Of a stretch of DNA of 64,000 nt, positions 3,189-27,122 are shown piece by piece. Numbering within the stretch: position 1 is the stretch's first letter; each line of letters starts with the position of its first letter. The DNA is taken from positions 73,216-137,215 of the forward strand of contig JARVGK010000003.1 of assembly GCA_029762535.1 (NCBI GenBank). Direction: 5' to 3'. Source of the stretch: Thermoplasmatota archaeon (GTDB taxonomy: Archaea; Thermoplasmatota; Penumbrarchaeia; Penumbrarchaeales; Penumbrarchaeaceae). Both the position numbers and the translations under genes were made by a program. Under the pieces are notes generated by a model that saw nothing but the letters and a program-made list of their open reading frames with translations, was not told where the DNA came from and did not search any database.

Positions 3189-6100
3189 TCATTTTCTCTT
3201 TACTCTCTTCCTGGTCCTGACAGTGGCCCTTTCCGATCCATCGTCATCTGGGGGTGTTTCTGCGGACATGTCCTCTTCAGAGGTCTCGACCTCGGGGCCT
3301 ACCTCATCGTCCTCAAGGACCTCATCCTCGAGATCTTCCTCATCTTCATATCCCTCCTCCTCTGCTCCCTCCTCTTCGTCCTCGGGCTCCCCTTCGTCCT
3401 CCAGGTATTCCTCATCTTCCAGGTCCTCATCGGCTTCCTCATCCGCGTCCCCGTAAGCCTCCTCATCGAGATAGTCATAGCTGTAAGGATCGAACTCCTC
3501 CTCATCGGTTCCGAGATCGTCGTCCCTGGGCTGTTTGATGTATATGTATACGCCGATGGCGATGATGATGATCGCGAAGATTGCAAGGGCCGCGTACATC
3601 ACCTCCCTCGGTATCCCATCGGATCCTACGATGGTCCTCTCGGTCCGGAAGGTCCATGTATTGTTGGTGTAGCCCTGAGGGAAACCGGCCCCTTCTATGG
3701 ACCTGGCCTCGGTCCCGATCCTCACGGTGTATGATACGCGGTTGCCGAGCCCGTCGTGCAGGATCTCGAGGCTCTGATTGTTATTGGTCCATACGTATCT
3801 CGCACCTTTGAGGGGGGGGTCGATCGTAGTGTATGATTCGATGGTAAGGGTGTCCATGGGCTGGTTGAACATGATCCTTATGGAGGTATCGAGGTCCCTG
3901 ACCGTACCTACCGGGGTCCTCCAGAGCACCAGGAGCTCCCTGGGCGGCGGAGTGAAATCCAGATAGTCCAGCCTGATCTCGAACCTGCCCCAGTATGGTT
4001 CCTGGGAACTTACCTCGAACGTATTGGTCATCTTCTGCAGATATCCCGCTCTCTTCCCGGGGATCGCCGAGACGGATTCCGGAGGGGTGACCTTGAACCT
4101 GCCAATGAAGGGGAGCGTCCTGATGCTGAACGTCGCCTCTCCCAGGTTGTTCGTGGTCCTGTTCTCGAGGACGACATCATCCATCGAAAGCAGTTCTATC
4201 AATGCGTTGAAGACCGCCCCGCTCCTCGGACCCTCTCCGAATGCGACGAAAACATCTATCGAACCGGTCTCCGGTCTGAGATAATATGTCAGAAAGAGTT
4301 CAGTGAAAAGATCGGGGTTCGGACCTGATGCGGATATGAACGTGCTGGTGTTCGAGAGATAGCCTGAGCGAACGCCGATCTCTCCTCTCAACGCGGCCTC
4401 CGGAGCTCCTTCCAACCTGTATTCCCCTCCCATCTCAAGGGAGGAGAATCCAACAACTCCGTCCTCCTGGGCTTGGGCGCTCTCGATCAGAGTGCCGTTG
4501 AAGGACAGGAGACGTACTATGGAGCCCTGCGCCCCCTGGCCTGAGAGCGGCCCTCCCTCGTAAAGGACCGTCACTTCAAGTGAATAGAGCATGCGTTCGG
4601 TCGTTCCCTGGAATACGGGAGTGTAAGGGGAATAGTTGTATGATGTATCGAAGGCCAGCATCCTGAAGCCATAAAGCGTCCCGGGGACAAGACCTCCTAG
4701 GGTGTACGACGTTTCTCCGGGACCGAGCGTCACAAGCGTTTCGAACTGCGTCATGGAGGGGGTAGAATTCATCTCGATGATGAAACCTTCAAGATCGGTC
4801 TCGGAGCCGGGGTCCCAGGATATGGTGAGATGATCGACGCCCTTGTCGGAGATGATCGCGGAGGTTGGCGTGGCGGGCGGGGTCAGGTCCGACGTGATGT
4901 TGGTCGCTGGCTGGGAAGGAGCCCCTTCCCAAACTCCGTCAAAGGCTGACACTCTGAATATTCCCCGCGTGGAAGGGCCTATCTCAGGGGATATCCAGGA
5001 TGTTGATGGATGGTCGACCTCCCCCGAGAGTATCCATTCTCCCGAGGAGAATGAGTATATCCTGTAGGCGATCGTGTCGTCGTCGTTGGGGTCCCATTTT
5101 AGCTTTATGCTCTCGAGCGTATCCAATGAGTCCGCCGTCAGGTTCAGGACGGATTGTGGAAGGTCTATGTCAGGTACAACAAGTTCGACCGACATCGGAG
5201 CCGATGTGTCGATATCGTAGACATGATCCCATATCATCGCCGTTCCCGGAACGTGAACGGTCGCGTTGGTCCTAACGTTCATAGGCGCGTTGGATCCGGG
5301 ATAGATCATTTTCAAGGCCACGAATGGTGCTATTCCGCCATCCGGTCCCGTGACCGGGTCGCTCCCCCCGAAGTAAGGGGTCGAGTGGAGGCCGCCTGTC
5401 CTTTCGTTCACTACGTGGAGCTCCACTCCTTCCATGGGCTGCACGTCCTTGTACAGGACGCGAACTCCGATCGTGTTGCTTATCATTACGTTCGACATGG
5501 GGTCGACATCGAACGAGGACACGGTAGTGTCCAGGACCTCGACCTCAGCTCCTTCGTATGCGGATAGGGCCGTCCCGCTGGCGACTATATCCGATCCCAC
5601 AACGGCATGGTCCCCCTCCCTGAATATCACGCTCCTTTGTGCGTCCACCTTGCTGTTGTTCATGAGCAGTCGGGCGCTATTCGATTCCAGGCCGATGCCG
5701 GCGCTCTTGACGATGACGTGGTCCAGGACGATATCGTTTCCGGAGAGGTCGAGGGCGGCCATGGTGGTATTGGACCAGATGATGACGTCCTTCATCATCA
5801 TGCTGGTCGTATCGTGCCCCGTTACTATCGAATGGCCTGTGCCCGGATCGGAATGGATCATGGTGGTCAGGATGCGTAGATTGGTAGTATGCGGAGGCAC
5901 TGGGCCTGCCCTTATCCCTGTCGATCCCTCTCCGATGAGGTCGATGGAACAGCCATCGATCACCCCTCTCCTTACGTCCCCGAGAACGTCTATCCCCGTA
6001 CCGGGGCCGTTCAGATATATCTGGGAGTATACCACCTCGTTATTACTTCCGCCCAGATGGAGTAGCCAACCGTCGTTGAACGATGTGAGGGTGGAGTCGA

Positions 6101-7520
6101 TAAGGACGTTGTCCGTTCCCGAGAGGATCGATCCGCTCGAAGCTTCGCCCCAGACTATGAAGGTCGAATCTCGGATCTCCGTCTGGTCCGCTCCAACCCG
6201 GACCCCGAAGGAGTTGTCCGCCCTTATGGAATAGCTGTTCGAAGAAAGGAGCGCCCCCCTGCCCGGACCGAGAACGATGCCGTTGGTCATCATACCGCTG
6301 GTCATGATGATGTCATTGATCAGGGTGAGGTTCCTGTGGTCGGAGAAGGCCGCTATGATCGATCCATTCCCCCCTTGGTAGAAGTTCGATCCCGATATGG
6401 ACATATCAACGCATCCCAGTAGGAACGACCCGTTCACAAGGCCCCCGGAGAGGGATATGCCCGTTTGATTATCCCCCTTCGAGGAATAGGACAGGTCCAT
6501 GATCGAGCATCCTATGAGATGGGTGCCATTGAGGAAGGACGAACCGTTCCCGAGCATGTTCACAGATGTATTGCTCAGCATGACATCCCTCACGTTGAAC
6601 ACCTCGATACCTCTGGCTCCCGAGTCCAGGAAAAGGGCCGTCCCGTTCATTGTGACGTTATCACACGATGAAAGTTCGATGCCGTGTGTGTTCTTACCGG
6701 TCATGGTGAGGAAGCAGCCCTCTATCTCTATCCCGGAACCGGAGAGGTGCATCGCCGTTCCGACCATCTCGATGATCATGGCATTGAGCTCGAGGTCTGT
6801 ACCCTGGAAGTGGATCCCAGATGCTCTCCCGGTCGATGTGATGCTGGAGTTATGGAAGTGGATGGAATCTCCCGAGATGATGAACCCCTTTGAACCGGAC
6901 CCGAGTCCTATGTCCATGTCCCTGAAGGTGATGTTCGAGACATTGATGGCATGGCATATCGTGGATCCCGATCCGTCACTTGCCATTTTCCCCAATATGA
7001 TGTTCGATGAATTGGCTATGTTCACGCAGATGTCCGGCGATCCCGAGAAGGATGCTCCGTCGATCTCGATGGACTTCGACGACTCTATGTTCAGAGCGAT
7101 GCCGGTCGTTGACCTGAAGCCGATCCCCGTCAGATCGATGTCGTTCGAGGAGATGTTGAGAGACCGACCGACGAAGGTCATGCCGGCCAATGTTACGAAG
7201 GGAGCGGTCACACTGCTGTTCTTGCCATACGGGCCTGAGATAAGTACCGATGCCGTATCATTACCCCTGAGCGTTACGGAACGGGTCCCGACACTGATCG
7301 ATTCGTTGTAATTGCCGGATGCGATGACTATTACATCGCCCTCGACGGCATCGCCCAGGGCTGCCCCTATGGTGGAATAGGTGGATCCCGTCCCGACGTA
7401 AAGTACGAGTCCGGATGCCCCGCGTGGGGTTATCAGCAGGATCCCCGATGTGAATAACAATAATACCATGGCCGTTGCGATGAGCTTACCTTTGCGTTCC
7501 CCGGCGTGTACTTCGATCAT
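3189..7520 (-). CDS. large cell-surface protein: parallel beta-helix, FN3 repeats, Ig-like domain, TM anchor, acidic tail
   Basis: Signal peptide; YSTIGAALGDAVEGDVIVIASGNY beta-helix cap; FN3-like segments (LTISWDP...YTLGGLVPGTLYGFRM); IRIMFNQPMD Big_5-like motif; TM then D/E-rich tail. Confidence 0.85.
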   Translation of the reverse strand: MIEVHAGERKGKLIATAMVLLLFTSGILLITPRGASGLVLYVGTGSTYSTIGAALGDAVEGDVIVIASGNYNESISVGTRSVTLRGNDTASVLISGPYGKNSSVTAPFVTLAGMTFVGRSLNISSNDIDLTGIGFRSTTGIALNIESSKSIEIDGASFSGSPDICVNIANSSNIILGKMASDGSGSTICHAINVSNITFRDMDIGLGSGSKGFIISGDSIHFHNSSITSTGRASGIHFQGTDLELNAMIIEMVGTAMHLSGSGIEIEGCFLTMTGKNTHGIELSSCDNVTMNGTALFLDSGARGIEVFNVRDVMLSNTSVNMLGNGSSFLNGTHLIGCSIMDLSYSSKGDNQTGISLSGGLVNGSFLLGCVDMSISGSNFYQGGNGSIIAAFSDHRNLTLINDIIMTSGMMTNGIVLGPGRGALLSSNSYSIRADNSFGVRVGADQTEIRDSTFIVWGEASSGSILSGTDNVLIDSTLTSFNDGWLLHLGGSNNEVVYSQIYLNGPGTGIDVLGDVRRGVIDGCSIDLIGEGSTGIRAGPVPPHTTNLRILTTMIHSDPGTGHSIVTGHDTTSMMMKDVIIWSNTTMAALDLSGNDIVLDHVIVKSAGIGLESNSARLLMNNSKVDAQRSVIFREGDHAVVGSDIVASGTALSAYEGAEVEVLDTTVSSFDVDPMSNVMISNTIGVRVLYKDVQPMEGVELHVVNERTGGLHSTPYFGGSDPVTGPDGGIAPFVALKMIYPGSNAPMNVRTNATVHVPGTAMIWDHVYDIDTSAPMSVELVVPDIDLPQSVLNLTADSLDTLESIKLKWDPNDDDTIAYRIYSFSSGEWILSGEVDHPSTSWISPEIGPSTRGIFRVSAFDGVWEGAPSQPATNITSDLTPPATPTSAIISDKGVDHLTISWDPGSETDLEGFIIEMNSTPSMTQFETLVTLGPGETSYTLGGLVPGTLYGFRMLAFDTSYNYSPYTPVFQGTTERMLYSLEVTVLYEGGPLSGQGAQGSIVRLLSFNGTLIESAQAQEDGVVGFSSLEMGGEYRLEGAPEAALRGEIGVRSGYLSNTSTFISASGPNPDLFTELFLTYYLRPETGSIDVFVAFGEGPRSGAVFNALIELLSMDDVVLENRTTNNLGEATFSIRTLPFIGRFKVTPPESVSAIPGKRAGYLQKMTNTFEVSSQEPYWGRFEIRLDYLDFTPPPRELLVLWRTPVGTVRDLDTSIRIMFNQPMDTLTIESYTTIDPPLKGARYVWTNNNQSLEILHDGLGNRVSYTVRIGTEARSIEGAGFPQGYTNNTWTFRTERTIVGSDGIPREVMYAALAIFAIIIIAIGVYIYIKQPRDDDLGTDEEEFDPYSYDYLDEEAYGDADEEADEDLEDEEYLEDEGEPEDEEEGAEEEGYEDEEDLEDEVLEDDEVGPEVETSEEDMSAETPPDDDGSERATVRTRKRVKRK

Positions 7521-7628
7521 ATCCTTCGCCCTCCCCGGCGCTATCGCCTATCCATATGCAACAACGCCATCAATTAATTTTCCTGACATATGTAAAAGAT
7601 TTAAAAGGGGGACGCTTTCATCCTGCTC

Positions 7629-8861
7629 ATGCATCCGACGGATGAGTTGAGGGGCGCAGCATCGACCCTCCTCGAAGGTAGAACGATCGTCCTTGGCGTA
7701 ACTGGGTCCATCGCTGCGGTCGAGTGCGTCAAACTCGCCAGGATGCTAATCCGTCACGGCGCTGCAGTTCATGCTGTCATGACGGCGGAGGCCAGGAAGA
7801 TAGTGGGGGAGTACGCCCTCGGCTTCGCAACGGCGAACCAAGTCATCACCGAGCTGACCGGAGACCTCGAGCATGTGGCTATGTGCGGGGACGTTGAAGG
7901 GCGGGCGGACCTTCTCCTGATCGCCCCCTGCACCGCCAACACCCTCGGGAAGATCGTCAACGCTATCGACGATACCCCCGTCACGACGTTCGCCACCACG
8001 GCGATAGGGACAGGGATCCCGTTGATCGTCGTTCCCGCCATGCACAATACCATGTACGCCCACGAGGGTGTGGCCTCCAACATCAAGAAGGCCAGGTCCA
8101 TGGGCATAGAGGTTGTGGACCCGGTGCTCTCCGAGAAGAAGGCCAAAATGGCCCCGGTGGACACCATAGTCGAGATCGCGATAAGAAAGCTCTCCGGAGG
8201 GGGCCTTCAAGGTCGAAAGGTTTTGATCGTCGCCGGGGCCAACCGGGAGGAGGTGGACGATATGAGGCTCCTTACCAACAGGGCGACTGGAAGGACCGGG
8301 ATCCATCTGGCCATGGAGGCTTTCAGAAGAGGGGCGGACGTGACCCTCCTTGCCGGAGTATCGGTCCACGGGATCCCGCCTCACTTCAGGACGGTTCGCT
8401 TCGGAGGGGTCATGGACCTCTGGGAGAAAGTGGAGGAGGAATTGTCTTCCTGCGACCAGTTCGATATCGCCCTCTTCCCGGCGGGGATCTCAGACTACAT
8501 ACCTTCCAGGTTAGATGGGAAGGTCCCCTCGGGACGGGAGGAGATGACTCTCGAGCTCAAACCCGCCATAAGGATCATGGATCGCTTCGTGAAGAGGGGC
8601 GGTAGCCGCCTTATCGTGGGTTTCAAGGCCGAGAGCGTATCGGGTGAGGAGCTCCTGAGAAGGGCCTACAGGAGGCTTAAGGAGGTCGGGATGGACCTGA
8701 TCGTGGCGAACGACCTTTCTCAGGTGAAGGAGGATTCCAATCACGTTATGATAATATCGAACGACAGGGAGGTCCTCGACATCGAGGGATCGAAGGCTGA
8801 CATCGCTTCCGTGCTCATGGCGAGATGCCAGGAGATGCTCGTCGGGATAAAGGAGAGTTGA
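7629..8861 (+). CDS. coaBC: phosphopantothenoylcysteine decarboxylase/ligase
   Basis: LGVTGSIAAV, IAPCTANTLGK, PAMHNTMY, VGFKAE, IVAND motifs. Confidence 0.95.
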   Translation: MHPTDELRGAASTLLEGRTIVLGVTGSIAAVECVKLARMLIRHGAAVHAVMTAEARKIVGEYALGFATANQVITELTGDLEHVAMCGDVEGRADLLLIAPCTANTLGKIVNAIDDTPVTTFATTAIGTGIPLIVVPAMHNTMYAHEGVASNIKKARSMGIEVVDPVLSEKKAKMAPVDTIVEIAIRKLSGGGLQGRKVLIVAGANREEVDDMRLLTNRATGRTGIHLAMEAFRRGADVTLLAGVSVHGIPPHFRTVRFGGVMDLWEKVEEELSSCDQFDIALFPAGISDYIPSRLDGKVPSGREEMTLELKPAIRIMDRFVKRGGSRLIVGFKAESVSGEELLRRAYRRLKEVGMDLIVANDLSQVKEDSNHVMIISNDREVLDIEGSKADIASVLMARCQEMLVGIKES

Positions 8862-8864
8862 ACC

Positions 8865-10058
8865 ATGGTACTGCGAGGTGGAGCTTTCTGCCCCGGGCAT
8901 ATCACCGGGCTTTTTTCCATACACGACGATACCGAGATGTACCTCCACAAAGGCTCCAGGGGGTCCGGGGTCTCCGTTACCCTCGGGGCCTCCGTTTCCA
9001 CTGCACTGTATCCCCCTGAAGATGGGAACGGGACGGAGAACCTTTCACTGGAGCTTCATGTAAGGGGAGTTGACAAGTTCCCCGTGAACGATCCGATATA
9101 CCGCCAGGTCCTGAAGGAGATGCTTCCCAATTCAGGTATCGGATGGAGGGCGGCTGTAAGGTCGAACCTGCAGCTGCCCGTAGGTCAGGGGTTCGGAATG
9201 TCGGGAGCCGGCGCCCTAGCCACCGCAATTTCCGTCTGGGAGGCCCTCCATTCGACCATTCCGCGCTGGGACCGAAAATTGAGGTTCAAGGGACAGCAGG
9301 AGATGTTCTTCTCGATGAAAACGTCGGAGTTCAGCGTCAGGCCGATAAGGAGGAGGATGCGCTCACACCTGCAGCTTCTGTCAATGAAGGAGGAACCCTC
9401 GCTGCCTGTCCAGCCTTTCGGCAAACCCTCAGGAATGGTGGAGGAGGGAGGGGTCAGGCCCCCCATGAGGTGGCTCAAGGACAGCGAGGCCGAAAAAGGG
9501 TCCGGTGGGATCACGTACGCCGATTGCGTGAACGCGGCGCACAGGGTCGATGTCATGATCGGCGGAGGTCTGGGCGATGTGATCTCACAGGCCAGGGGCG
9601 GCGTGGAGATCAGGATGTCTCCCGGCGTCCCGCCCTACGGGGAGATCCACACCATCCCCGTGGAGCTGGACAACACCCCGAAAGTGATCGCCGCCACGGT
9701 GGGGCCCCCGATAGAAACTTCGAGGGTGATAGGGAATCCCGCAAGAAGAGAAAGGATACACGGGGCGGGCGAGGCGGCGTTGAGGAGGCTGACAGAAGCG
9801 CCATCGATGACCATGATGATGTCAGAGAGCAGGCAGTTCTCCATCGAGGCCGGGATCCAGAGCATGATGGTGAGGTCCGCCCTCTCCGAAGTCGATGCGA
9901 TGGTGAAGGCCTCGCAGATAATGATCGGCAACAGCGTGTTCACCATGGTACCGAGCAAGGATAAGGACCTCGTCAAAAGTATCACGGAGATCTGGGGAAG
10001 GAGAGGAAGCGTATTCTCCATGGACGTGGACCTGATCGGTGCGAGGCCCTTGACCTGA
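8865..10058 (+). CDS. pantoate kinase (GHMP family), with a long internal insertion
   Basis: AFCPGHITGLF, GSRGSGV, LPVGQGFGMSGAGAL, GLGDV motifs; directly after coaBC. Confidence 0.85.
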   Translation: MVLRGGAFCPGHITGLFSIHDDTEMYLHKGSRGSGVSVTLGASVSTALYPPEDGNGTENLSLELHVRGVDKFPVNDPIYRQVLKEMLPNSGIGWRAAVRSNLQLPVGQGFGMSGAGALATAISVWEALHSTIPRWDRKLRFKGQQEMFFSMKTSEFSVRPIRRRMRSHLQLLSMKEEPSLPVQPFGKPSGMVEEGGVRPPMRWLKDSEAEKGSGGITYADCVNAAHRVDVMIGGGLGDVISQARGGVEIRMSPGVPPYGEIHTIPVELDNTPKVIAATVGPPIETSRVIGNPARRERIHGAGEAALRRLTEAPSMTMMMSESRQFSIEAGIQSMMVRSALSEVDAMVKASQIMIGNSVFTMVPSKDKDLVKSITEIWGRRGSVFSMDVDLIGARPLT

Positions 10059-10360
10059 CCAGCAGGGGTTCCTAAAGTTCCCAAGAGATGATACCGCCTT
10101 GTACACGAAGAAGAATATTGAGGCCGATATCTTCATTTGAATCCGATCAGGGCCGATCGGATCCTATCACTGAAGCGAACTTCGTACGATCGGAGCCATC
10201 CATTCGATCCCTATTGACCCGACACGGGAGGGATCACATTGTTCTTGTTTCGCTTCTACCCAAACGTGATATAGTTAAAAAGCCTAACCGGGAAAGAAAA
10301 ACCCTTATAGGCCATCCCTTTTGAGCGCACTGGGGTGATCGAAAAAAACAATGAAGGCGA

Positions 10361-11431
10361 GTGTTGATCATGTTGGAGGACCAGCTTTCCACATCCAGGT
10401 TCGAGAGCGTTGGGGTCAATGTCCCCTCCAGGTCACTCACGACCACCGACCTTATGAGGTCCATGAAGCACAGGATCGGGCTAGACCTCGAGAGGCTTAC
10501 GGGCATCCATGCTAGGAGGGTCTGCGCCCCAGGAGAGTCATCATACACATTGGCCCTGAATTCCGCCAGGGACTGCCTCAGCCATTCGAGATACAAGCCG
10601 GATGACCTGGAGGTTATAATAAACTGCTCCATATCCCGTTCAAAGGACCGGAACATGATAGTCTATGAACCATCCATGGCCCATTACATCCGTCAGGCGA
10701 TCGGGGCCAAGAACGCAATGGTGTTCGATATCAACAATGCATGCGCTGGAATGCTAACGGGCGTTCAGATACTAAACGGTTATATCAGGAACGGAATATT
10801 CAAGAACGGCATGGTCGTCAGCGGAGAGCATATAACGCCGATCAGCGACAGCGCGACAAGGACGGTCAGGTCGATAGCGAGCAGACAGCTCGCCTCCCTT
10901 ACCGTTGGAGACGCGGGAGCCGCGGTAATACTCGAAAAAACGGGGGATCGGGGCAACGGGATGTCGGTCACCCAGTTCACCACCCTCTCGAAGTTCAGCA
11001 GGCTCTGCATAGGAAAGCCGCTCACCAACGATATCGGCGGAATGATGGTGGCAAAAGCAAGGAAGATCCACAGGGTGGCCCTGGACCACGCCCCTCAACT
11101 GATCAAGGGGGCCCTCATCAAGGCGGGACTGACCATAGACAGGATAGATCATCTCATCCCGCACCAGACCTCGAAAAGCTCAATAAAGAAAGGCATAAAG
11201 GAGATGGCCGACCATTTCAAAGCGACTCCCAAGAACGTCGTCATCAATCTGATGGAGTATGGGAATACGGCCTCGACGACAGTGTTCCTTGCCCTTCATG
11301 ACATGCTCAAGGGCGGCATCGTGAAGAAAGGCGAGAAGATCATGCTATTGTGCTTCGCATCGGGCCTGGTCGTTGGGGTTATCATCTTTACAATGGACGA
11401 TCTGGTGGATCGATATGGGATCTCGAATTAG
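10361..11431 (+). CDS. FabH/OleA-like condensing enzyme, catalytically intact
   Basis: Cys (DINNACAG), His (IPHQTS), Asn (YGNTAS) triad plus OleA-type Glu (YEPSMA). Confidence 0.85.
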   Translation: MLIMLEDQLSTSRFESVGVNVPSRSLTTTDLMRSMKHRIGLDLERLTGIHARRVCAPGESSYTLALNSARDCLSHSRYKPDDLEVIINCSISRSKDRNMIVYEPSMAHYIRQAIGAKNAMVFDINNACAGMLTGVQILNGYIRNGIFKNGMVVSGEHITPISDSATRTVRSIASRQLASLTVGDAGAAVILEKTGDRGNGMSVTQFTTLSKFSRLCIGKPLTNDIGGMMVAKARKIHRVALDHAPQLIKGALIKAGLTIDRIDHLIPHQTSKSSIKKGIKEMADHFKATPKNVVINLMEYGNTASTTVFLALHDMLKGGIVKKGEKIMLLCFASGLVVGVIIFTMDDLVDRYGISN

Positions 11432-12311
11432 GTCAGCCGCATTCGTTGGGAAGAGCCTCAACCCTTTCTCCAGAGGCGCCATATCACTGGGTGTCAAGGC
11501 TGCGAGGAAATGCATCCATAACTCGGGTATAGACCCGTCAGACATAGGACTGCTCATCTTCTGCGGAATATACCGGGACGAGAACATCGGGGAGCCGGCC
11601 ATCGCCTCGCTCATACAGTCCAATCTTGATATCAACCTCCTGAGCGAGGGTGAGAAGGGGACGTTCGCGTTCGACATACTGAACAGCGGTTGTGGGATGG
11701 TGACCGCGCTCCATGTGGCCGACAGCCACCTCCGATCGGGTGGAGGTGAATATGCGATGATAGTGGCCTCCGATCACATACCCATCCCGAGCCATACCGA
11801 GGGTTACCCTTTCCAACCCGGGGGAGGCGCACTTCTGCTCGAACGCTCCGACGAGGACAGGGGCCTTACCGATTTCAGGTTCGATACATATCCGACCGAC
11901 AAGGAGGCCTTCCACTCGTTCATCGAATACAGGGACGGAAAGGAGAAGGGTAAAAAGAAGGGGCAGTTCCTCAGGTTCGAGGAGGACCCACATTTCCTGG
12001 AAAAGGGCGTATCGGGTGCGCTTATGACGGTTAATAAACTCCTTGAGAGGAATTCACTGAGCATCGATGACGTACGGTCGATCCTGCCATCCCAGAGCCC
12101 GACAGGCTTCCCCATTGCCCTTGGAAAAGGGTTGGGCCAAGAGAAGAGGACCATTGACCTTACAAGCATCCATGGGAACCTCCACACGGCGGGATTGGCG
12201 GCCTGTCTCGAGAGCGCCATGGAGAGCGATAAGCTTCCTGCGAACTCGAACCTCCTTCTCGTAAATGTTGGATCGGGAATATCGGTGGGCGCGGCCCTTC
12301 TCCGAACATGA
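11415..12311 (+). CDS. FabH/OleA-like paralog with degenerate active site
   Basis: Same fold motifs (GEPAIA, FDILNSGCG, GGGALLL, HGNLHT, VGSGISVG), but Gly at the Cys position and Ser at the His position; overlaps the upstream gene's end. Confidence 0.78.
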   Translation: MGSRIRSAAFVGKSLNPFSRGAISLGVKAARKCIHNSGIDPSDIGLLIFCGIYRDENIGEPAIASLIQSNLDINLLSEGEKGTFAFDILNSGCGMVTALHVADSHLRSGGGEYAMIVASDHIPIPSHTEGYPFQPGGGALLLERSDEDRGLTDFRFDTYPTDKEAFHSFIEYRDGKEKGKKKGQFLRFEEDPHFLEKGVSGALMTVNKLLERNSLSIDDVRSILPSQSPTGFPIALGKGLGQEKRTIDLTSIHGNLHTAGLAACLESAMESDKLPANSNLLLVNVGSGISVGAALLRT

Positions 12312-12342
12312 ACCATAGACCGGCCGGGACCTGTTATATCCG

Positions 12343-13338
12343 TCAGATCGGATGCCCCTTCAGATATTCTCCATACCTCTTCATACCCTCCGCCGTGGAA
12401 ATCCTAGGTCCGTAGCCAAGGTCCCTTTTGGCCGAGGAGATATCGAACCAGTGTGAACTGGTCATCTCCTCCACAAGGAACCTGGTGACAATGGGCTCTC
12501 CTCTCCTTCGAAGGAGGAAGTGGGTCAATTCCATGATCCCCGCTAAAGCCATGGCCGTCCATTTGGGAATGGACCCCCTGATAGGAGGGGCCCCTGCAAG
12601 GGCCAGGAAGTCATCGATGGCATCCCAGGCATTCACTGGCTCACCGTTGGTGATGAAATATGCTCTGCCCCTGCATCGTGGGTTCTCCTTGAGCGCTTTG
12701 AGGGCCAGGATATGGGCCTCGGCGGCGTTTTCAATATAAACCATGTCCACAACGTTCTTTCCGCCCCCTAACCTCTTCAACCTTCCGGCCCTTGCCCCCT
12801 GGACGAGCCGAGGGAGCAATCGGTCGTCCCCCGGACCCCAGATGAGATGCGGACGCAGTGCAATGGTCCGAATATCATCGCCGTTCGCTGAGAGGACCAT
12901 ACGCTCGGACGCCGCCTTGGTCCGGTTGTAATGCGACCCATGCACTGCGGGATACGGTGCGCTCTCATCGGCGCCCTCCATGTCCTTCCCATCAAAGACA
13001 ACGGAAGGGGAGCTTGTGAAGACGAGGTAACCCACTCCGTTACTCCTGCATGCTTCGATCACGTTCCGGGTCCCCTCAACGTTCGTCCTGTGGAATTCGT
13101 GATAAGGCCCCCAGAAACCCACCCTGGCAGCAGTATGTATGACCGCATCCATGCCCCCGACGGCATCCACCACCGTTCGCTGGTCCCCTATGTCCCCTGA
13201 TATCGTCATGATGCCGCTCTTCCCAAGTTCAGGATAGCTGCCTCTGGAGAAGCTCGTGACATCATGGCCCTGATCCCGGAGCATGTGACATATGGCTCCT
13301 CCCAGGAACCCGCCTCCGCCGGTGACGAGGACCCTCAT
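12343..13338 (-). CDS. oleD: OleD-like 2-alkyl-3-oxoalkanoate reductase (3-beta-HSD-type extended SDR)
   Basis: VLVTGGGGFLG, TSSPSVVF, YNRTK, LRPHLIWGPGD; start overlaps the oleC stop (TGATG). Confidence 0.85.
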   Translation of the reverse strand: MRVLVTGGGGFLGGAICHMLRDQGHDVTSFSRGSYPELGKSGIMTISGDIGDQRTVVDAVGGMDAVIHTAARVGFWGPYHEFHRTNVEGTRNVIEACRSNGVGYLVFTSSPSVVFDGKDMEGADESAPYPAVHGSHYNRTKAASERMVLSANGDDIRTIALRPHLIWGPGDDRLLPRLVQGARAGRLKRLGGGKNVVDMVYIENAAEAHILALKALKENPRCRGRAYFITNGEPVNAWDAIDDFLALAGAPPIRGSIPKWTAMALAGIMELTHFLLRRRGEPIVTRFLVEEMTSSHWFDISSAKRDLGYGPRISTAEGMKRYGEYLKGHPI

Positions 13339-14960
13339 CAGAATTGCCTCCCGGCCCATTCCGCAAGCTCTTCCCTGAGTATCTTGGCATTGTGGCGAAC
13401 GTCCATCGGGAATCCGTCATGGATCAGGATATCTCTAATATCCTCGGTCAGAATATTGGCCTTTCCCAAAGCCAGGAGCTCCTTTTTGATCCTGTCCGGA
13501 TCGCCGATATTTTGGTCCTTCTTAAGCTCGACAACGATCACAGGCCTCTGGTTTCCTATTTGACCCACACCGACTAGTGCCGACCTGAAGACCAAGGGGT
13601 GTTTGTTGAAGATCGCCTCACATCTGACGGGATATAGCGTTCCTTTCTTTGTCACGACCCTGTGCGCCTTCCTCCCGCAGAACCAGAGCATTCCGTCCTC
13701 CAGATAGCCCGTGTCCCCCATTCTGTGCCATATGGTCTTGCCATCCAGTATCTTGGCGTTTTTGGTATGCTCAGGCTTCCTGAAGTATTCCTTGGTCACC
13801 GAGGGCCCCCTCACGCATATCTCACCGACTTCCCCATCCGGTAGGACCTCAGCGGACCCCCAATCCGCGACAGGTCCGTCCGTGATCCGAATGATCCGAA
13901 CCTCGTTGCCAGGTAGCGGCCTACCCACGCATGTTCCTGCTCCGGTCTCGGTCCTGCGGAGGGAGTGCTCCAGTATCACATCGCTGGAGATATCAGTTAC
14001 TGGCAGTGCCTCGGTCGCCCCGTAAGGAGTATGGATAAGAGCATTTTTTGGCAGTATTCGGTGAAGATCGACCATGAGGTCGGGACGTATTGGAGCTCCC
14101 GCGGTCACGATCCTTCTCACCGATCCCAGGGTCAACTTCCTCTCTATCCCGTAACGGGCCAGGTTCGTCAAGAGCGCCGGGGAACCATAGACATTGGTGC
14201 ATTTCTGGTCCTCAATGGCCCTGACTATGTTCTTAGGATCGGCCTTTCCGGGCTTGGTAGCATCCATGTAAGGGATGACCGAGGTCAGCCCCAGGTTGGC
14301 GTCGAATAGGGCGAAGAGCGGGAACGTCGCCAGGTCAACATCTCTCTTTTCGTATCCGAAATGGTCCTTTAGGAATCCGATCTGATGGTCGAACATGGAA
14401 TGTTCGTAGACCACTCCCTTCGGGGGGCCTGTGGAACCGCTGGTGAAGAAAATACCGACGGTATCCTCAGGCCTTCTCTTGACCGAAGGGAAAGGAGCGG
14501 GATCGGAGGATCGAACCTCTTTAAGCCTCTTACCGCCCCATGCACCTGTGGTTATCTTCAGTTCGACGGTCCTGAAAGCGGACGGTGAGAGTATCCTGAG
14601 TACATGGGCAAGGGGCGTCCCGATGAACGCCTTGGCCTCGACCTCCCCGAGGGAGGAGACGAGCCTCTTCTTGCCCATACCAGGGTCTATCATAACAAGG
14701 ACAGCCCCCATTTTTAAAAGGGCGGAAGTGAGGGAAAAGAACTCTATCGAGGGTTTGACCATCAGGATGGCCTTGTCGTCCTTCTTGAGCCCCGCATCGA
14801 TCAACCCCCTGGCGTATCTGTTCGATTCCTCCTCTAGCCTGCGGTAGGTCATGCTCCTATATCGAGGAGACGGATCGACCTGGACCACCACAGCCGCCTT
14901 ATCAGGTTGTGTCCTTGCTAACTCCGTCAACCTCTCCGAGAGGTTCGTCGTCGAATCCAT
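13338..14960 (-). CDS. oleC: OleC-like beta-lactone synthetase (ANL adenylating enzyme)
   Basis: FTSGSTGPPKGVVY, TPYGATEALP, WHRMGDTGY..WFCGRKAHRV and OleC-type FPMDVRHNAKI. Confidence 0.88.
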   Translation of the reverse strand: MDSTTNLSERLTELARTQPDKAAVVVQVDPSPRYRSMTYRRLEEESNRYARGLIDAGLKKDDKAILMVKPSIEFFSLTSALLKMGAVLVMIDPGMGKKRLVSSLGEVEAKAFIGTPLAHVLRILSPSAFRTVELKITTGAWGGKRLKEVRSSDPAPFPSVKRRPEDTVGIFFTSGSTGPPKGVVYEHSMFDHQIGFLKDHFGYEKRDVDLATFPLFALFDANLGLTSVIPYMDATKPGKADPKNIVRAIEDQKCTNVYGSPALLTNLARYGIERKLTLGSVRRIVTAGAPIRPDLMVDLHRILPKNALIHTPYGATEALPVTDISSDVILEHSLRRTETGAGTCVGRPLPGNEVRIIRITDGPVADWGSAEVLPDGEVGEICVRGPSVTKEYFRKPEHTKNAKILDGKTIWHRMGDTGYLEDGMLWFCGRKAHRVVTKKGTLYPVRCEAIFNKHPLVFRSALVGVGQIGNQRPVIVVELKKDQNIGDPDRIKKELLALGKANILTEDIRDILIHDGFPMDVRHNAKILREELAEWAGRQF

Positions 14961-14964
14961 CAGC

Positions 14965-15867
14965 CTACCCCCTGCGCAGGGCTTTCCCCACCTCTTTCAG
15001 GATGCGGTCCCTGGCATCCTCTATGACATAATGTCCAGCATCCTGATATGTCACGAATCGGGCCTTCGGGAATCGAGCCCTCCAGACGTCTAATATATCC
15101 ATATCGAATATGAAATCCTTTTCACCCCAAATAACGAGCATCGGCTTCCCCTTTAGCTTTGACAGGTTCTCGTCGATCCACTTGAGCGTGCCGTAGCTTG
15201 GGTCCTTTGGTACGAGGGGTATGTCCTGAACGAACCTGAGCGTGGATAGGCGGTTCCTCCACGAGTTGTACGGGGCGACGTAACCCTTCCTTACATGGGG
15301 GTCCATCCTCTTTTCAACGCCGATATGGGACGCTATTCTGGAAAAAGCGTTGAGACCCCTGATGAGAAGGGTCGGTGAGATCAGGCCGTACTTCACGTAA
15401 TAGAGAGACAGGGGCAATCTCTTGCCCTCCGGCATCCTGAAGGCCGCGGTGTTCATGAACACGAACCTCGAGAACCGCTCCGGATGTCCGACCGCGACCC
15501 CTGCTCCGATCACACCCCCCCAATCATGGGCTATCAGAGTGATATCCTCATCGATGCCCAGGTGATCGAGGAGCGCTTCCACATCCTGGATCCTGGATGC
15601 GATCCTGTATTGGTATTTGTCCTCTCCTGGTCGGTCCGACAGCCCCATTCCCATATGATCGGGCACGATGCATCGGTGGTCCGCCCTGAGGTCCTTGACC
15701 AGCTCCCGGAAATAAAAAGACCAGGTCGGGTTGCCGTGAAGAAAAAGAACGGGAGGTCCCCTGCCCTCGTCGAGATAATGATGCCTCAGACCGTTCCTCT
15801 CGAACCAGTGATGTTCGAACGGGTAAATGTCCCTGAAAGGGGTAATATCGAAAGGTGTTCCATGCAT
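14965..15867 (-). CDS. oleB: OleB-like alpha/beta hydrolase (haloalkane dehalogenase fold; beta-lactone decarboxylase)
   Basis: LHGNPTWSFYFR, AHDWGG nucleophile, DAGHY catalytic His; directly upstream of oleC. Confidence 0.85.
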   Translation of the reverse strand: MHGTPFDITPFRDIYPFEHHWFERNGLRHHYLDEGRGPPVLFLHGNPTWSFYFRELVKDLRADHRCIVPDHMGMGLSDRPGEDKYQYRIASRIQDVEALLDHLGIDEDITLIAHDWGGVIGAGVAVGHPERFSRFVFMNTAAFRMPEGKRLPLSLYYVKYGLISPTLLIRGLNAFSRIASHIGVEKRMDPHVRKGYVAPYNSWRNRLSTLRFVQDIPLVPKDPSYGTLKWIDENLSKLKGKPMLVIWGEKDFIFDMDILDVWRARFPKARFVTYQDAGHYVIEDARDRILKEVGKALRRG

Positions 15868-16033
15868 TGTATCCGGGGACCAAGGTCCATATCCTAAATT
15901 AAGATTGCTTCGGGGATGATCCGCTTAGATCGATCTATTATCATCCATCATCATTCATGAACCCCGGGATGTTTAATTATGGTCGAGTGGGGTTCGAATC
16001 CCGTGCGTCGCTAGAGCTACAACAAATTAGATA

Positions 16034-16120
16034 TGGTGCAGGGGAAGGGATTCGAACCCTCGAACCACTAAGGACCAGACCCTGAATCTGGCGCCGTTGG
16101 CCAGGCTTGGCTACCCCTGC
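16034..16120 (-). tRNA. tRNA-Leu (anticodon CAG), CCA encoded
   Basis: GCAGGGG/CCCCTGC acceptor stem, CCAGA-TTCAGGG-TCTGG anticodon arm, long variable arm, GGTTCGAATCC T-arm, ACCA end. Confidence 0.96.
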
Positions 16121-16442
16121 ATGTTTTTGCGTTTGTGCCTGGGTAGCGTATGGCCAACGGCGCCCCGAGACGCAGTCTCGGTGATGGCGCCTCGGATGGG
16201 TGGCATGTGCCACCCGTCCCCTTCCGCGAACGCTTTGGTGGTGAGACCAAAGGGTTCTTGGGCAGGCTTGGCTACCCCTGCATGTTTTTGCGTTTGTGCC
16301 TGGGTAGCGTATGGCCAACGGCGCCCCGAGACGCAGTCTCGGTGATGGCGCCTCGGATGGGTGGCATGTGCCACCCGTCCCCTTCCGCGAACGCTTTGGT
16401 GGTGAGACCAAAGGGTTCTTGGCCAGGCTTGGCTACCCCTGC
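16097..16442. repeat. tandem 161-bp repeat: three copies of the 24-bp tRNA-Leu 5' end separated by two identical 137-bp structured units
   Basis: TTGGCCAGGCTTGGCTACCCCTGC at 16097, 16258 (1 mismatch) and 16419; 16121-16257 is identical to 16282-16418. Confidence 0.95.
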
Positions 16443-18908: not shown

Positions 18909-21206
18909 TCAAGGATAGGAGCCGTAGCACTGCTGCATGATATGATACGACGCTTTGAGCCTGGGCACATATTCGGGTATGTCCCAGTTATCCCAACCAT
19001 AGAACATGAAGTCCACTCTCCTGAACACGCCTGAGAGGGGGCGGGGGATCGAATCGGATATCGGGGGGTGATTCGTCCCGTGACTAAAATTTCCGAATGC
19101 ATCAGGCTTGTAGGTGATGACGGCGAGGTGAATGCCATCTATCCTCTGGCTCGCCTTCAATCCATCCCTCCACATATCCCCCATCACCTCCTTTCTTGAA
19201 GGGTCCCTGAAGTTTAAAAGCAGCCAGGGGATCCTCATCTCTAAGGAGTCATCCCCCCATGAGATATCGGCAAGGGAGTTGTAATTGGGCATGGCCGGGT
19301 CCGCCACCCCCCATCTCAGCTTGCCGGTCTCGTGAGTGGAGAAGTTCGCGCTGATGTTGAACCTCTCGATAATATAACCGCGTTCATGCGTGAGTTCTAT
19401 GGTGTGGAATATGCCATTGTCCTTGCGGTTTGCATATTCCACGATCGGGATGACGCCTTCGTCCACCGCGTAATCGTAATGGTTGACGTCGTAGTACGAA
19501 TCGACGATGACCCTGGACTCCTCTCCGTTCAGTTGGATGAGGAAGTCTATACCCCTCTCGGATACGATCCCCGATCCGAAGGGCATGACATGTACGCCCT
19601 GGTCCTGAACCGTGTCGAGGAGGACCATCGTCCTCATCCTCGACCAATCGGGAGGGCCCTGAAGGTCCATGTATTCCAGCCTGAGGTAGAGATAAGCGGC
19701 GTCATGGTGTACTTGAACGGCCTGGAGATCCCTGCCGTCGTCGTACCCGTCATCGAATATATTGTAGCGGGATCCGGCCGTCCTTCCGAGGGGGTCCACC
19801 CTTTCCCAATCGCCGGAGGATCCGTCGATGACGATACGATGCTCGGAGACGGGATCGAAGGCGAGCATGCCGTAGCATTGTTCGCACGTCTGTACATCGT
19901 TCCAGTAAGGCCTTCTTCCCGGGTTCATGTAGTCCATGGTGTTCCATGCCCGCTTGAACCATTCGTCCTGCCACGAGAACAGAAGCCCTCCTGCGTAACC
20001 CTCATCAATAATATCGTTGAACAGTGAGGAAGTATAGGCTCCCTGTTCTTTTTCCGTTAAACCCCCATGGTGCATCCCATTGTTATTGAAGTGAGCGATC
20101 CCACGAGAGGAACTTATACCATATTCCGCGACCAGTATCGGAATGGAAAGCGTCTTTTTCAGGTCATTCAGGTATGATGCATAGGGGGAGGCCCTTCCAT
20201 ATTTTGATATGTAATTTGCATAAGAGGGATCCAGATTAAGGAAATCTGGATAGTTGGGATATACATGGTATGAGGCGAAGAAACCGGGATAGAAATGGGA
20301 CTTAACACGAAAATGCCTATCATCGATAGTCTCCCAATCATCATACAGCCTGGGTTCATATTTATGCTCCAGAGGATCGGTGGTTGGCCAGTTGATAAAG
20401 CTTTGAGCCCTCTGACAGTCGTAGTTGTCATATTCATAACCTGCGCAGAAATCCATCATCCTGGCCAGCCAGATCTCCATCGGGCTTGCCTCCACGGTTC
20501 TGAAGAACCTTCCATCGAGCTGGTGGATCCCCCGGTTGTTGGAATTGGTCCCGTTGACGATGTAGGGATCGTATTCGATCCCGAGGATGTATCCAAGGAC
20601 ATATTCTGAAACATCATGCCTGTATATGCCGTCGGCGATCCCCACGGTCGGTTCGACCTTCCTGTTGCCGTGGATTATGTCAACGGCCATGGCGATGTTG
20701 TCTATGAATACCGTGCTTACCTCATCATCGAAGGCATCGCAGCGCTCATGGATCGCGATCTCGTCCAAGGTCACGCCCTGGAAGAGGAATATCGGATCGG
20801 GGCGCACTCTGTTGTACTCGAGCAAGGCCCTGTAGAAATCCGGAGGGTGATGCGTGTATATCCTGACGGCGTTCGCGTTCATCTCCCCAATGAGTCGGAA
20901 CCAATCCCTGTATTCGGAATAGGTTATCGCGGCCTCCCCGGGGAAATATCCCGGCTTGGCGGCCCCCATGTTCACTCCTTTGATGATGATGTCCGTCCAT
21001 ATACCATCCTTCATGATCTGGAAACGCTCCTCTCCCACCCGGGACGTGATCCATGCCCCTTTTCCCCCGACATCGAAATATGCCCCCTCCATGTGATAGC
21101 GGGGGATCTCCCTGTCCCTGATCAAAAGAGGCCTCACGGCGAGGGCCGAGAGCAGCAGCATCCCGGCAATGAATACCGCATACTTTAGAGGACCTTTCCA
21201 CTCCAT
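18909..21206 (-). CDS. membrane-anchored putative TIM-barrel glycoside hydrolase (GH-A clan-like)
   Basis: N-terminal TM; IKGVNMG, NANAVRIYT, SYHVYP, LVAEYG, FSWQDEWFK motifs. Confidence 0.7.
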   Translation of the reverse strand: MEWKGPLKYAVFIAGMLLLSALAVRPLLIRDREIPRYHMEGAYFDVGGKGAWITSRVGEERFQIMKDGIWTDIIIKGVNMGAAKPGYFPGEAAITYSEYRDWFRLIGEMNANAVRIYTHHPPDFYRALLEYNRVRPDPIFLFQGVTLDEIAIHERCDAFDDEVSTVFIDNIAMAVDIIHGNRKVEPTVGIADGIYRHDVSEYVLGYILGIEYDPYIVNGTNSNNRGIHQLDGRFFRTVEASPMEIWLARMMDFCAGYEYDNYDCQRAQSFINWPTTDPLEHKYEPRLYDDWETIDDRHFRVKSHFYPGFFASYHVYPNYPDFLNLDPSYANYISKYGRASPYASYLNDLKKTLSIPILVAEYGISSSRGIAHFNNNGMHHGGLTEKEQGAYTSSLFNDIIDEGYAGGLLFSWQDEWFKRAWNTMDYMNPGRRPYWNDVQTCEQCYGMLAFDPVSEHRIVIDGSSGDWERVDPLGRTAGSRYNIFDDGYDDGRDLQAVQVHHDAAYLYLRLEYMDLQGPPDWSRMRTMVLLDTVQDQGVHVMPFGSGIVSERGIDFLIQLNGEESRVIVDSYYDVNHYDYAVDEGVIPIVEYANRKDNGIFHTIELTHERGYIIERFNISANFSTHETGKLRWGVADPAMPNYNSLADISWGDDSLEMRIPWLLLNFRDPSRKEVMGDMWRDGLKASQRIDGIHLAVITYKPDAFGNFSHGTNHPPISDSIPRPLSGVFRRVDFMFYGWDNWDIPEYVPRLKASYHIMQQCYGSYP

Positions 21207-25942: not shown

Positions 25943-26192
25943 GCCCCTTTTGTGAGGATCTAATTATTGAAGAATAACGTAATTCAGTAATTGGTCATAG
26001 CGTTCTGCGCTAATGCTATAATAGGTTTGCTTAAGGGCTATATATCACGCATCGAATGGATATTTTAACGGTTCGGAACCAAAAAAGGGCAATCTATTTA
26101 TAGTTACAAGCAATAAATATATATATGGCTTCTTACGTTCGGATAATCCCGATATAAAAAACCAACTGTCTATGTCCTGGGAGGTATGCAAC

Positions 26193-27122
26193 ATGGTAGA
26201 TAAGGTCCAGGTAGAGGAAGTCACGAAATGCCCCGAATGCGGTTCCGAACACATAATAAGGGATTACGAGAGGGGCGAGCTTGTTTGCGGAGACTGCGGA
26301 GTGGTAATAAACGACCTGCAGATAGACATGGGTCCCGAGTGGAGGGCCTTCGATTCCGCCCAGGGAGAGGCCAGGGCCAGGACCGGAAGCCCCATCACCC
26401 TCACAAGGCATGACAAGGGGCTTTCCACAGAGATAGGGTGGAAGAACAAGGATTCCTACGGAAAGTCCATTCCATCCCGTAACAGGGCTCAGATGTATAG
26501 GCTAAGGAAGTGGCAGAGGAGGATCAGGGTCAGCAACGCCACGGAGAGGAATCTGGCCTTCGCGCTCTCCGAGCTTGACCGTGTAGCATCCGGGCTCGGT
26601 CTACCCCGCAATATCAGGGAGACGGCCGCTATGATATACAGGAACGCGGTGAACAAGAACCTGATCAGGGGTAGGTCCATTGAGGGTGTTGTAGCGTCAT
26701 CCCTTTATGCGGCATGCAGACAGTGCAACGTCCCCAGGACGCTAGATGAGATATCAGCGGCATCCAGGGTGAGCAGGAAGGAGATAGGAAGGACCTATCG
26801 GTTCATGACCAGGGAATTGAACCTCAAGCTAATGCCCACATCACCTCAGGATTACGTGTCAAGGTTCGCATCCGAGCTCAAGCTCTCCGGAGAGACGATA
26901 ACCAAGGGTTACGAGATCCTGAAACAGGCGGACCAGCTGGAGATCACTTCAGGCAGGGGGCCAACGGGCATGGCCGCCGCGGCGATATACATAGCCTCCA
27001 TCATGACCTCGGAGAGGAGGACCCAGAGGGAGGTCGCAGACGTCGCCGGGGTTACGGAGGTCACCATAAGGAACCGCTACAAGGAGCTTGCGGAGCAGCT
27101 CGGGATCGATCTCGAGATATGA
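26193..27122 (+). CDS. tfb: transcription initiation factor IIB
   Basis: CPECGS...CGDCG zinc ribbon, GPEWRAF, cyclin repeats, [13 protein letters not shown]. Confidence 0.97.

Follow-up and report, generated by a model that had tools for sequence, protein, structure and literature searches.

The window analysed here is a 64,000-nucleotide stretch (positions 73,216 to 137,215) of contig JARVGK010000003.1 in assembly GCA_029762535.1, from an uncultured sediment archaeon of the phylum Thermoplasmatota. It contains a five-gene set, A1, A2, oleB, oleC and oleD, which probably encodes a functional pathway for the head-to-head joining of two long acyl chains into an olefin, with a predicted heterodimer of A1 and A2 at the condensing step in place of the homodimeric OleA of bacterial OleABCD systems. 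A first-pass annotation made from the sequence alone had called the locus a complete OleABCD cluster. The OleB, OleC and OleD parts of that description stand, whereas the OleA part gives way to a two-subunit pair resembling LstAB of lipstatin biosynthesis and NltAB of nocardiolactone biosynthesis. The proposal that a genuine archaeal genome harbours an Ole-type head-to-head pathway was upheld, with OleB, OleC and OleD of orthologue grade (45–57% identity to bacterial ole-cluster proteins).

From the gene content, residues, phylogeny and distribution described below, we infer the following activity, substrates and product. A1 and A2 would form a heterodimeric thiolase in which A1 bears the Cys-His-Asn site and A2 gives the Glu base across the dimer interface, like LstB, NltB and the second chain of the OleA homodimer. 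This heterodimer would convert two long acyl-CoAs, without decarboxylation, to a 2-alkyl-3-oxo acid, which OleD would turn into a β-hydroxy acid and OleC would close, in an ATP-driven step, to a β-lactone. OleB would then decarboxylate the β-lactone to a cis internal olefin. With oleB in the set, the expected outcome is an olefin in place of a secreted β-lactone, and a long-chain internal olefin is the likely product; the assignments of the five genes are held with higher confidence than this end product. The set would have been taken as a unit from Syntrophia-type bacteria and then inherited and rearranged within one archaeal family.

OleB, OleC and OleD

The first-pass description of oleB, oleC and oleD in this order, tightly spaced or overlapping and converging on two FabH/OleA-like genes, was confirmed by the coordinates (Table 1). 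A gap of 4 nucleotides separates oleB from oleC, oleC and oleD overlap by 22 nucleotides and A1 and A2 by 17, and the two blocks converge with 31 nucleotides between the stop codons of A2 and oleD.

OleC matches the Pfam family AMP-binding and passes the 478-bit cut-off of NCBIfam model NF006754 (PRK09274 family) with 656.2–656.8 bits, a cut-off reached in none of 14 control genomes. It scores under the narrow equivalog cut-offs of OlefBLtnSynXan NF045786 (Xanthomonas type; 565 versus 900 bits) and NF045785 (Shewanella type; 523 versus 850 bits) and is a distinct subclade belonging to neither of these two lineage-specific equivalogs. OleC carries the adenylation motifs TSGSTGPPKG and YGATE and the tail FP(M/V)D(V/I)RHNAKI, all of which show almost no variation among 11 OleC homologues; in the window the tail is seen as the PMDVRHNAKI to which the first-pass annotation had drawn attention. 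A sequence search of solved structures with OleC returned generic adenylating enzymes only and no OleC chain. OleD matches Pfam 3Beta_HSD (E = 1.5e-60), and its top NCBIfam model is OleD NF042422, at 398.6 bits under a 580-bit cut-off, with the next unrelated model, HpnA, at 128.7 bits; the Gly-rich TGGGGFLGG of short-chain dehydrogenases/reductases and the YxxxK motif (YNRTK) are both present.

OleB matches Abhydrolase_1 and haloalkane-dehalogenase-like models, and its closest solved relative is DhmeA (8ooh/8ckp; E = 1.5e-36), an enzyme of haloalkane dehalogenase subfamily III (HLD-III). The pentad of that subfamily consists of Asn and Trp halide-site residues, an Asp nucleophile, an Asp acid and a His base (PMC10503415), and alignment with DhmeA (8ooh) shows all five positions kept in the archaeal protein (HGNPTW, HDWGG, the acid Asp and GHYV). 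Among 80 bacterial loci recovered by an OleC profile search, oleA-oleB-oleC-oleD is the usual layout, and their B, C and D proteins are 38–57% identical to those of the window. The B-C-D order is found in all loci of the archaeal family and in about 60 bacterial loci.

The OleB homologue is central to where the pathway ends. It might act otherwise than as a decarboxylase, for example by hydrolysis, leaving a β-lactone or a β-hydroxy acid lipid as the final product. HLD-III enzymes, among which the Xanthomonas OleB (XcOleB) is classed, are functionally diverse (PMC10503415), pairs of the A1A2 type are experimentally known solely from β-lactone pathways (lipstatin and nocardiolactone), and A1-A2-C-D sets without oleB occur in the archaeal genome G032 and in a Desulfobacterium metagenome-assembled genome (MAG; L112). 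We nevertheless regard such an end point as improbable. In every oleC-bearing genome of the family the B-C-D order is kept, here with oleB almost abutting oleC; oleBC fusions occur among the close OleC homologues; the archaeal OleB has the full pentad and is 42–55% identical to OleB of canonical bacterial oleABCD clusters; and the presence of oleB is the literature marker of olefin-forming clusters (PMC7064751).

Distribution and linkage of the two gene blocks

OleC is present in 9 of the 23 other genomes of the window's family, in three further genera, and the archaeal gene clade spans at least four genera of this one family. The nine include G004; its apparent lack of OleC was rejected, since its oleC contains a 100-N gap. 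Outside the family, OleC was found in a single genome (G032), from another family of the same class, and in a sample of 401 genomes of the phylum the NF006754 cut-off was exceeded in nine, all within these two families. Of the 23 family genomes, 12 have an A1A2 pair, as does each OleC-bearing genome (11 of 11).

In G032, A1, A2, oleC and oleD form one co-directional operon (L020, G032:C25, about 6470–11273); its OleC lies on a very long branch, and no OleB homologue was found in this genome, which is 91% complete. This is a layout of the β-lactone type, like that of nocardiolactone, in an archaeon. The A1A2 module thus occurs in three contexts, namely with BCD, with CD (G032) and alone (Mycolicibacterium). 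The lone pair of KAS-III (ketoacyl synthase III) genes, at 5914–7915 of a Mycolicibacterium-type contig (L136) without oleC or oleD, is flanked by a NiFe hydrogenase cluster and two WS/DGAT wax-ester synthase genes, and points to a possible further role for the heterodimeric condensing module.

Convergent adjacency of A1A2 and BCD is seen in the window's genome and its nearest relative. In other relatives A1A2 is surrounded by housekeeping genes of archaeal type (PriL, an aminotransferase and a GNAT), as would fit a reading in which the two blocks are independent, A1A2 making a ketone or other condensation product and BCD drawing its substrate from elsewhere. The placement of the blocks on different contigs in five relatives and the occurrence of A1A2 alone in G006, G019, G023 and Mycolicibacterium point the same way. 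This independence is judged unlikely, because A1A2 is present in every OleC-bearing genome, no other OleA-like gene is found in the window's own genome, the OleC and A1 trees agree, and the genes are joined in a single operon in Syntrophales, in the A1A2CD operon of G032 and by adjacency both here and in two independent metagenome contigs.

Two further observations concern the distribution. Where A1A2 is unlinked from BCD, a gene of about 254–307 amino acids with faint BPL_N/GATase-like matches is kept directly downstream of A2 (Table 1), a position at which the window lacks it. The OleC profile search of genome contigs recovered bacterial loci only, plus one 7.8-kb contig labelled 'Candidatus Woesearchaeota archaeon' (L071; JAHWIS010000008.1), which carries a canonical oleA-B-C-D cluster under a DPANN label. 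Its OleC groups among Desulfuromonadales/Geobacter sequences in the OleC tree; the contig is therefore either bacterial and misbinned or the product of a separate transfer.

The A1/A2 condensing pair

A1 and A2 both match Pfam ACP_syn_III and ACP_syn_III_C. Catalytic positions were mapped through the Xanthomonas OleA structure (XcOleA, PDB 3s21), in which E117/C143/H285/N315 correspond to chain positions 104/130/272/302; with these align A1 residues E100, C125, H265 and N299, which are invariant in 28 homologues and lie in the motifs YEPS, NNACAG, PHQTS and YGNTAS. A1 is nonetheless far from canonical OleA. It is 22–31% identical to OleA of canonical clusters and separated from them by a very long branch in the A1 tree, it is a closer match to FabH structures than to XcOleA, and it lies under every NCBIfam cut-off (NF006720, 144.5 versus 285 bits). 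The published OleA pattern, EPxx[AS]x(14,18)DxxNACL (PMC7158056), is missed solely at its last residue, as A1 reads EPSMA-x15-DINNACA; NACA in place of NACL accounts for the failure of motif-based surveys to find archaeal clusters.

A2 is shortened by about 45 residues at its N terminus and has Gly92 at the position of the catalytic Cys and Ser at that of the His, while the OleA-type Glu and the Asn are kept and E60-P61 is invariant in 27 homologues. Cys93, one residue past the canonical position, is mostly conserved and is Ser or Gly in the Syntrophales proteins. This architecture resembles that of LstAB and NltAB, in which subunit B is truncated, without the triad, and activity needs co-expression of the two subunits (PMC12141560; bioRxiv 10.1101/856955). 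The reported triad of LstA is C128/H271/N305 and the essential Glu of LstB is E60 (PMC12141560); in NltB the essential Glu is reported as E57 (bioRxiv 10.1101/856955). From these residues and gene lengths, A1 and A2 look like a heterodimer of the LstAB/NltAB type, not canonical OleA.

A predicted A1+A2 complex gave an ipSAE of 0.95, against 0.00 for the best of three controls, at a mark that was reached by 58 of 80 solved complexes and by 2 of 110 mismatched pairs; since KAS-III homodimers have been solved, this pass may mirror homodimer likeness and is not proof of binding. The model runs had at least 93% of contacts in common, with a partner pLDDT (predicted local distance difference test) of 91, and A2 residues 56–66 were placed against A1 residues 117–127.

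A reading of A1 and A2, which the first-pass annotation called two FabH/OleA-like genes, as OleA paralogues does not hold against the sequence distance of A1 and the degenerate state of A2. A canonical OleABCD system on those lines, with two OleA paralogues that form separate active homodimers, each preferring a chain length of its own, has in its favour the KAS-III fold of both proteins and, again in both, an OleA-type Glu within an EP[SA] motif. It is very unlikely, because the Gly-for-Cys and Ser-for-His replacements and the N-terminal deletion of A2 are conserved across the A2 family, and because of the low identity of A1 to canonical OleA and its distant place in the tree. No other KAS-III/OleA candidate was found in the window's own genome, apart from an HMG-CoA-synthase-like gene.

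Phylogeny and transfer

Two Syntrophales MAGs (GCA_026417625.1 and GCA_030920355.1) carry a co-directional A1-A2-oleB-oleC-oleD operon whose products are 52, 40, 49, 57 and 54% identical to A1, A2, OleB, OleC and OleD of the window, respectively. OleC trees were built with FastTree (59 rows) and with IQ-TREE in quick mode (36 rows). Sequences from the archaeal family form one clade, with a support of 100 in the OleC trees and 96 in the A1 tree, and this clade joins that of the Syntrophales with supports of 94 and 92 in the OleC trees, in agreement with the A1 tree. A wider OleC group (support 96–97) also takes in a protein from a Thermoplasmata MAG and that of G032, and is nested among Planctomycetota and other bacteria.

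A direction of transfer from bacteria to archaea is indicated because the archaeal clade nests within bacterial diversity, in trees without an inferred root. On these sequence relationships, the simplest reading would be that the five-gene unit was transferred once, long ago, from a Syntrophia-like donor and was afterwards ameliorated and rearranged. The suggestion of horizontal acquisition made at first pass is thus borne out by the OleC and A1 trees, the composition having since become host-like; the tRNA beside the cluster, which the annotation had found compatible with such acquisition, lends no weight to an island. In relatives the genes lie elsewhere, at unrelated sites, and an island anchored on the tRNA was accordingly set aside.

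Archaeal provenance of the contig

The 137-kb contig whose 3' half forms the window belongs to a MAG with a completeness of 93% and a contamination of 1%. The nearest named relatives of OleC and A1 are from MAGs labelled 'Thermoplasmatota archaeon', and two of these match genomes of the window's own family exactly. One 39-kb Logan contig from the probable source run spans window positions 7500–15985, from CoaBC to oleB, with no differences at a depth of 14.3, and the next Logan contig, past the tRNA and repeat tract, has a depth of 13.9. The cluster has a GC content of 55.5%, against a genome mean of 53.4% (standard deviation 4.7), and a tetranucleotide distance at the 39th percentile of genome segments, in line with the host-like base composition reported at first pass. 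Two unbinned metagenome contigs carry related loci: a 4.4-kb contig from a different study is 91% identical and spans A2-D-C-B, and a 42-kb JGI contig has the convergent B-C-D/A2-A1 layout with proteins 79–80% identical and different flanks.

Contamination or chimerism is very unlikely. The separate archaeal clade, the host-like composition and the recurrence of the layout in the two unbinned contigs together argue for an old transfer and not for contamination. A Syntrophales fragment joined to an archaeal contig during assembly or binning, which could be suspected from the bacterial affinity of the closest non-archaeal homologues and from the position of the right edge in a tRNA/repeat tract, at which Logan contigs of the source run end and the depth rises sharply to 762, is scarcely credible given the unbroken source-run contig, the setting within a long contig of a nearly complete MAG, the archaea-only clade of homologues across 11 family MAGs, the host-like GC and tetranucleotide composition and an identity of just 40–57% to bacterial proteins. 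Of the two cluster edges at which chimerism had been proposed as a check, the left is intact on the 39-kb contig and the right is unbridged.

Points against the olefin reading

Several observations weigh against a transferred heterodimer-plus-OleBCD olefin pathway. OleD, the narrow OleC equivalogs and any OleA model are all under NCBIfam cut-offs. The likeness to LstAB and NltAB is one of architecture and residues, set by published descriptions, with L112, G032 and L136 serving as proxies. The conservation of Cys93 in most A2 proteins means that an 'inactive' A2 is not proven, and the lone pair of Mycolicibacterium means that A1A2 can work outside an Ole pathway. In most relatives the A1A2 and BCD blocks are unlinked, lying on different contigs in the five genomes mentioned, and BCD was not found in the three A1A2-bearing relatives G006, G019 and G023, which are 62–86% complete. 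The sister relationship to Syntrophales is supported moderately (92–94). At the right junction, which runs from oleB through tRNA-Leu to the transporter, no single Logan contig bridges the tract at 15985–16393 and independent contigs break there, because the tRNA-Leu region is repetitive.

Possible supply of acyl chains

A 3308-residue PfaA-like megasynthase with the domain order KS-AT-KS-like-4xACP-KR-DH-PPTase, its ACPs in tandem, is encoded outside the window on contig C17 of the window's own genome (G000; L128:819–10745), adjoined by a 2142-residue eukaryote-style single-chain acetyl-CoA carboxylase (L128:10833–17261). The megasynthase is found in 21 of 23 family genomes and, in G010 and G004, lies about 20 kb from oleBCD on one contig. 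Five genes with acyl-CoA dehydrogenase domains, four on contig C24 and one on C9, are also present, and the window's own genome has in addition a 3-hydroxyacyl-CoA dehydrogenase and several FadD-like ligases. In Shewanella-type bacteria a Pfa synthase is reported to feed OleA (PMC6463001). This suggests by analogy that the archaeal chains may be made by the megasynthase and acetyl-CoA carboxylase; acyl-CoA ligases and β-oxidation are another possible source. A search of the window's own genome for the wax-ester synthase family PF03007 gave no match, as did the controls, and is hence uninformative.

Planctomycetota just outside the wider OleC group have a single canonical OleA beside a Pfa-type synthase. 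Large Pfa-type synthase genes also stand directly upstream of canonical oleA in Geomonas limicola (L094, 251–6901) and in a planctomycete locus (L126, 1–4861); the archaeal genome shares this association of a megasynthase with Ole genes, in its case unlinked.

Comparison with known systems

With the OleABCD systems of Xanthomonas campestris, Shewanella oneidensis and Micrococcus luteus, the archaeal set shares tightly coupled B, C and D genes, an OleC that passes the family model, an OleB with the HLD-III pentad and a condensing enzyme with the OleA-type Glu and Cys-His-Asn; a Pfa-like megasynthase in the genome is shared with the Shewanella and Planctomycetota hosts. It differs in its archaeal host, in a condensing enzyme made of two genes (A1 and a degenerate A2) where OleA is homodimeric, and in the A and BCD blocks being convergent here and unlinked in most relatives. 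The likeness to lipstatin and nocardiolactone biosynthesis lies in adjacent, overlapping KAS-III genes, A1 triad positions that are almost those of LstA, a shorter second subunit without the full triad and with an essential-type Glu near residue 60, and partnered OleC and OleD homologues. Unlike LstABCD and NltABCD, the archaeal set includes OleB and is without nonribosomal peptide synthetase or formyltransferase tailoring genes, and unlike LstB and NltB, A2 keeps the Asn and the off-register Cys93. The Syntrophales operons comprise the same five families and are the sister group in both the OleC and A1 trees, but form one co-directional unit where the archaeal version is split or convergent.

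An earlier survey with the canonical OleA motif, by Surger et al. (2020), did not detect any ole cluster among Archaea (PMC7158056). OleABCD has since been reported, from annotation, in Hodarchaeales (Asgard archaea; 2024 preprint, bioRxiv 10.1101/2024.07.04.601786); compared by its description, that case is alike in placing a whole Ole pathway in archaea and differs in phylum. The first-pass remark that the pathway is characterised from bacteria thus holds for the biochemistry and not for gene content, an archaeal OleABCD having been claimed already in that preprint. The gene contexts listed in one paper are oleABCD, oleBC-fusion and oleACD, and a heterodimer with OleB is not among them (PMC7064751). 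Our literature search found no paper on the heterodimer-plus-OleB layout and none linking Thermoplasmatota with ole genes. What appears to be new here, on sequence grounds, is that an archaeal family couples OleBCD to a putative heterodimeric thiolase.

Layout of the locus and neighbouring features

Coordinates are collected in Table 1. For A2, an open TTG frame from 11373 is probably too early a start, as the gene call and all homologues begin at the ATG at 11415. The archaeal flanks agree with the first-pass description and comprise CoaBC, pantoate kinase, tRNA-Leu(CAG) and transcription factor B (TFB). Just ahead of tRNA-Leu lies a fragment resembling a tRNA 3' end (GGTTCGAATCC T-arm and acceptor), and two tandem repeats of 161 nucleotides follow the tRNA; loose contig ends at this tract point to further copies elsewhere. 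A 765-residue open reading frame without a Pfam or NCBIfam match and a 1443-residue fn3/β-helix protein near the cluster have no apparent tie to it.

Table 1. Positions of the ole-type genes and of other features, in window coordinates unless a locus is named
Feature	Position	Strand	Length	Assignment or remark
A1	10370–11431	+	353 aa (P0121); 356 aa from alternative GTG start at 10361	LstA/NltA-like catalytic KAS-III subunit
A2	11415–12311	+	298 aa (P0241)	LstB/NltB-like truncated, degenerate KAS-III partner subunit
oleD	12343–13359	-		NAD(P)H-dependent 2-alkyl-3-oxoalkanoate reductase homologue
oleC	13338–14960	-		Olefin β-lactone synthetase homologue
oleB	14965–15867	-		HLD-III α/β hydrolase, β-lactone decarboxylase homologue
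CoaBC	7629–8861			Flank on A1 side
Pantoate kinase(-like)	8865–10058			Flank on A1 side
tRNA 3'-end-like fragment	15975–16012	+		Just ahead of tRNA-Leu
tRNA-Leu(CAG)	16034–16120			Flank past oleB
Tandem repeats	within 16121–16442		2 × 161 nucleotides	After tRNA-Leu
TFB	26172–27122			Archaeal flank gene
Open reading frame	18909–21206	-	765 aa	No Pfam or NCBIfam match
fn3/β-helix protein	3189–7520	-	1443 aa	Near the cluster
Gene downstream of A2 in relatives	L118:7496–8260; L119:3347–4270; L116:4232–4996	-	about 254–307 aa	Faint BPL_N/GATase-like matches

Implications

The cluster bridges two pathways that have been kept apart in the literature, the heterodimeric thiolase leading to β-lactones and the homodimeric OleA leading to olefins, and its Lst/Nlt-like two-subunit condensing enzyme shows why surveys based on the canonical OleA motif miss such archaeal sets. 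It would make Thermoplasmatota a second archaeal phylum with the genetic potential for fatty-acyl-derived hydrocarbons. Its interest lies chiefly in being directly expressible and in its link to the fatty-acyl megasynthase of the lineage; together, the ole set and the megasynthase offer an expressible test of bacterial-style lipids in archaea, with a bearing on the 'lipid divide' and on where the long-chain alkenes of anoxic sediments come from. More tentatively, and with less than even confidence, the family may make its own fatty-type chains with the megasynthase and the single-chain acetyl-CoA carboxylase and condense them head-to-head into long, possibly polyunsaturated hydrocarbons within an isoprenoid-ether membrane, through an undescribed 'heterodimer + OleB' branch of the Ole pathways held in common with Syntrophia. 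If this megasynthase-fed reading is true, the family would have a working bacterial-type neutral-lipid module in archaea.

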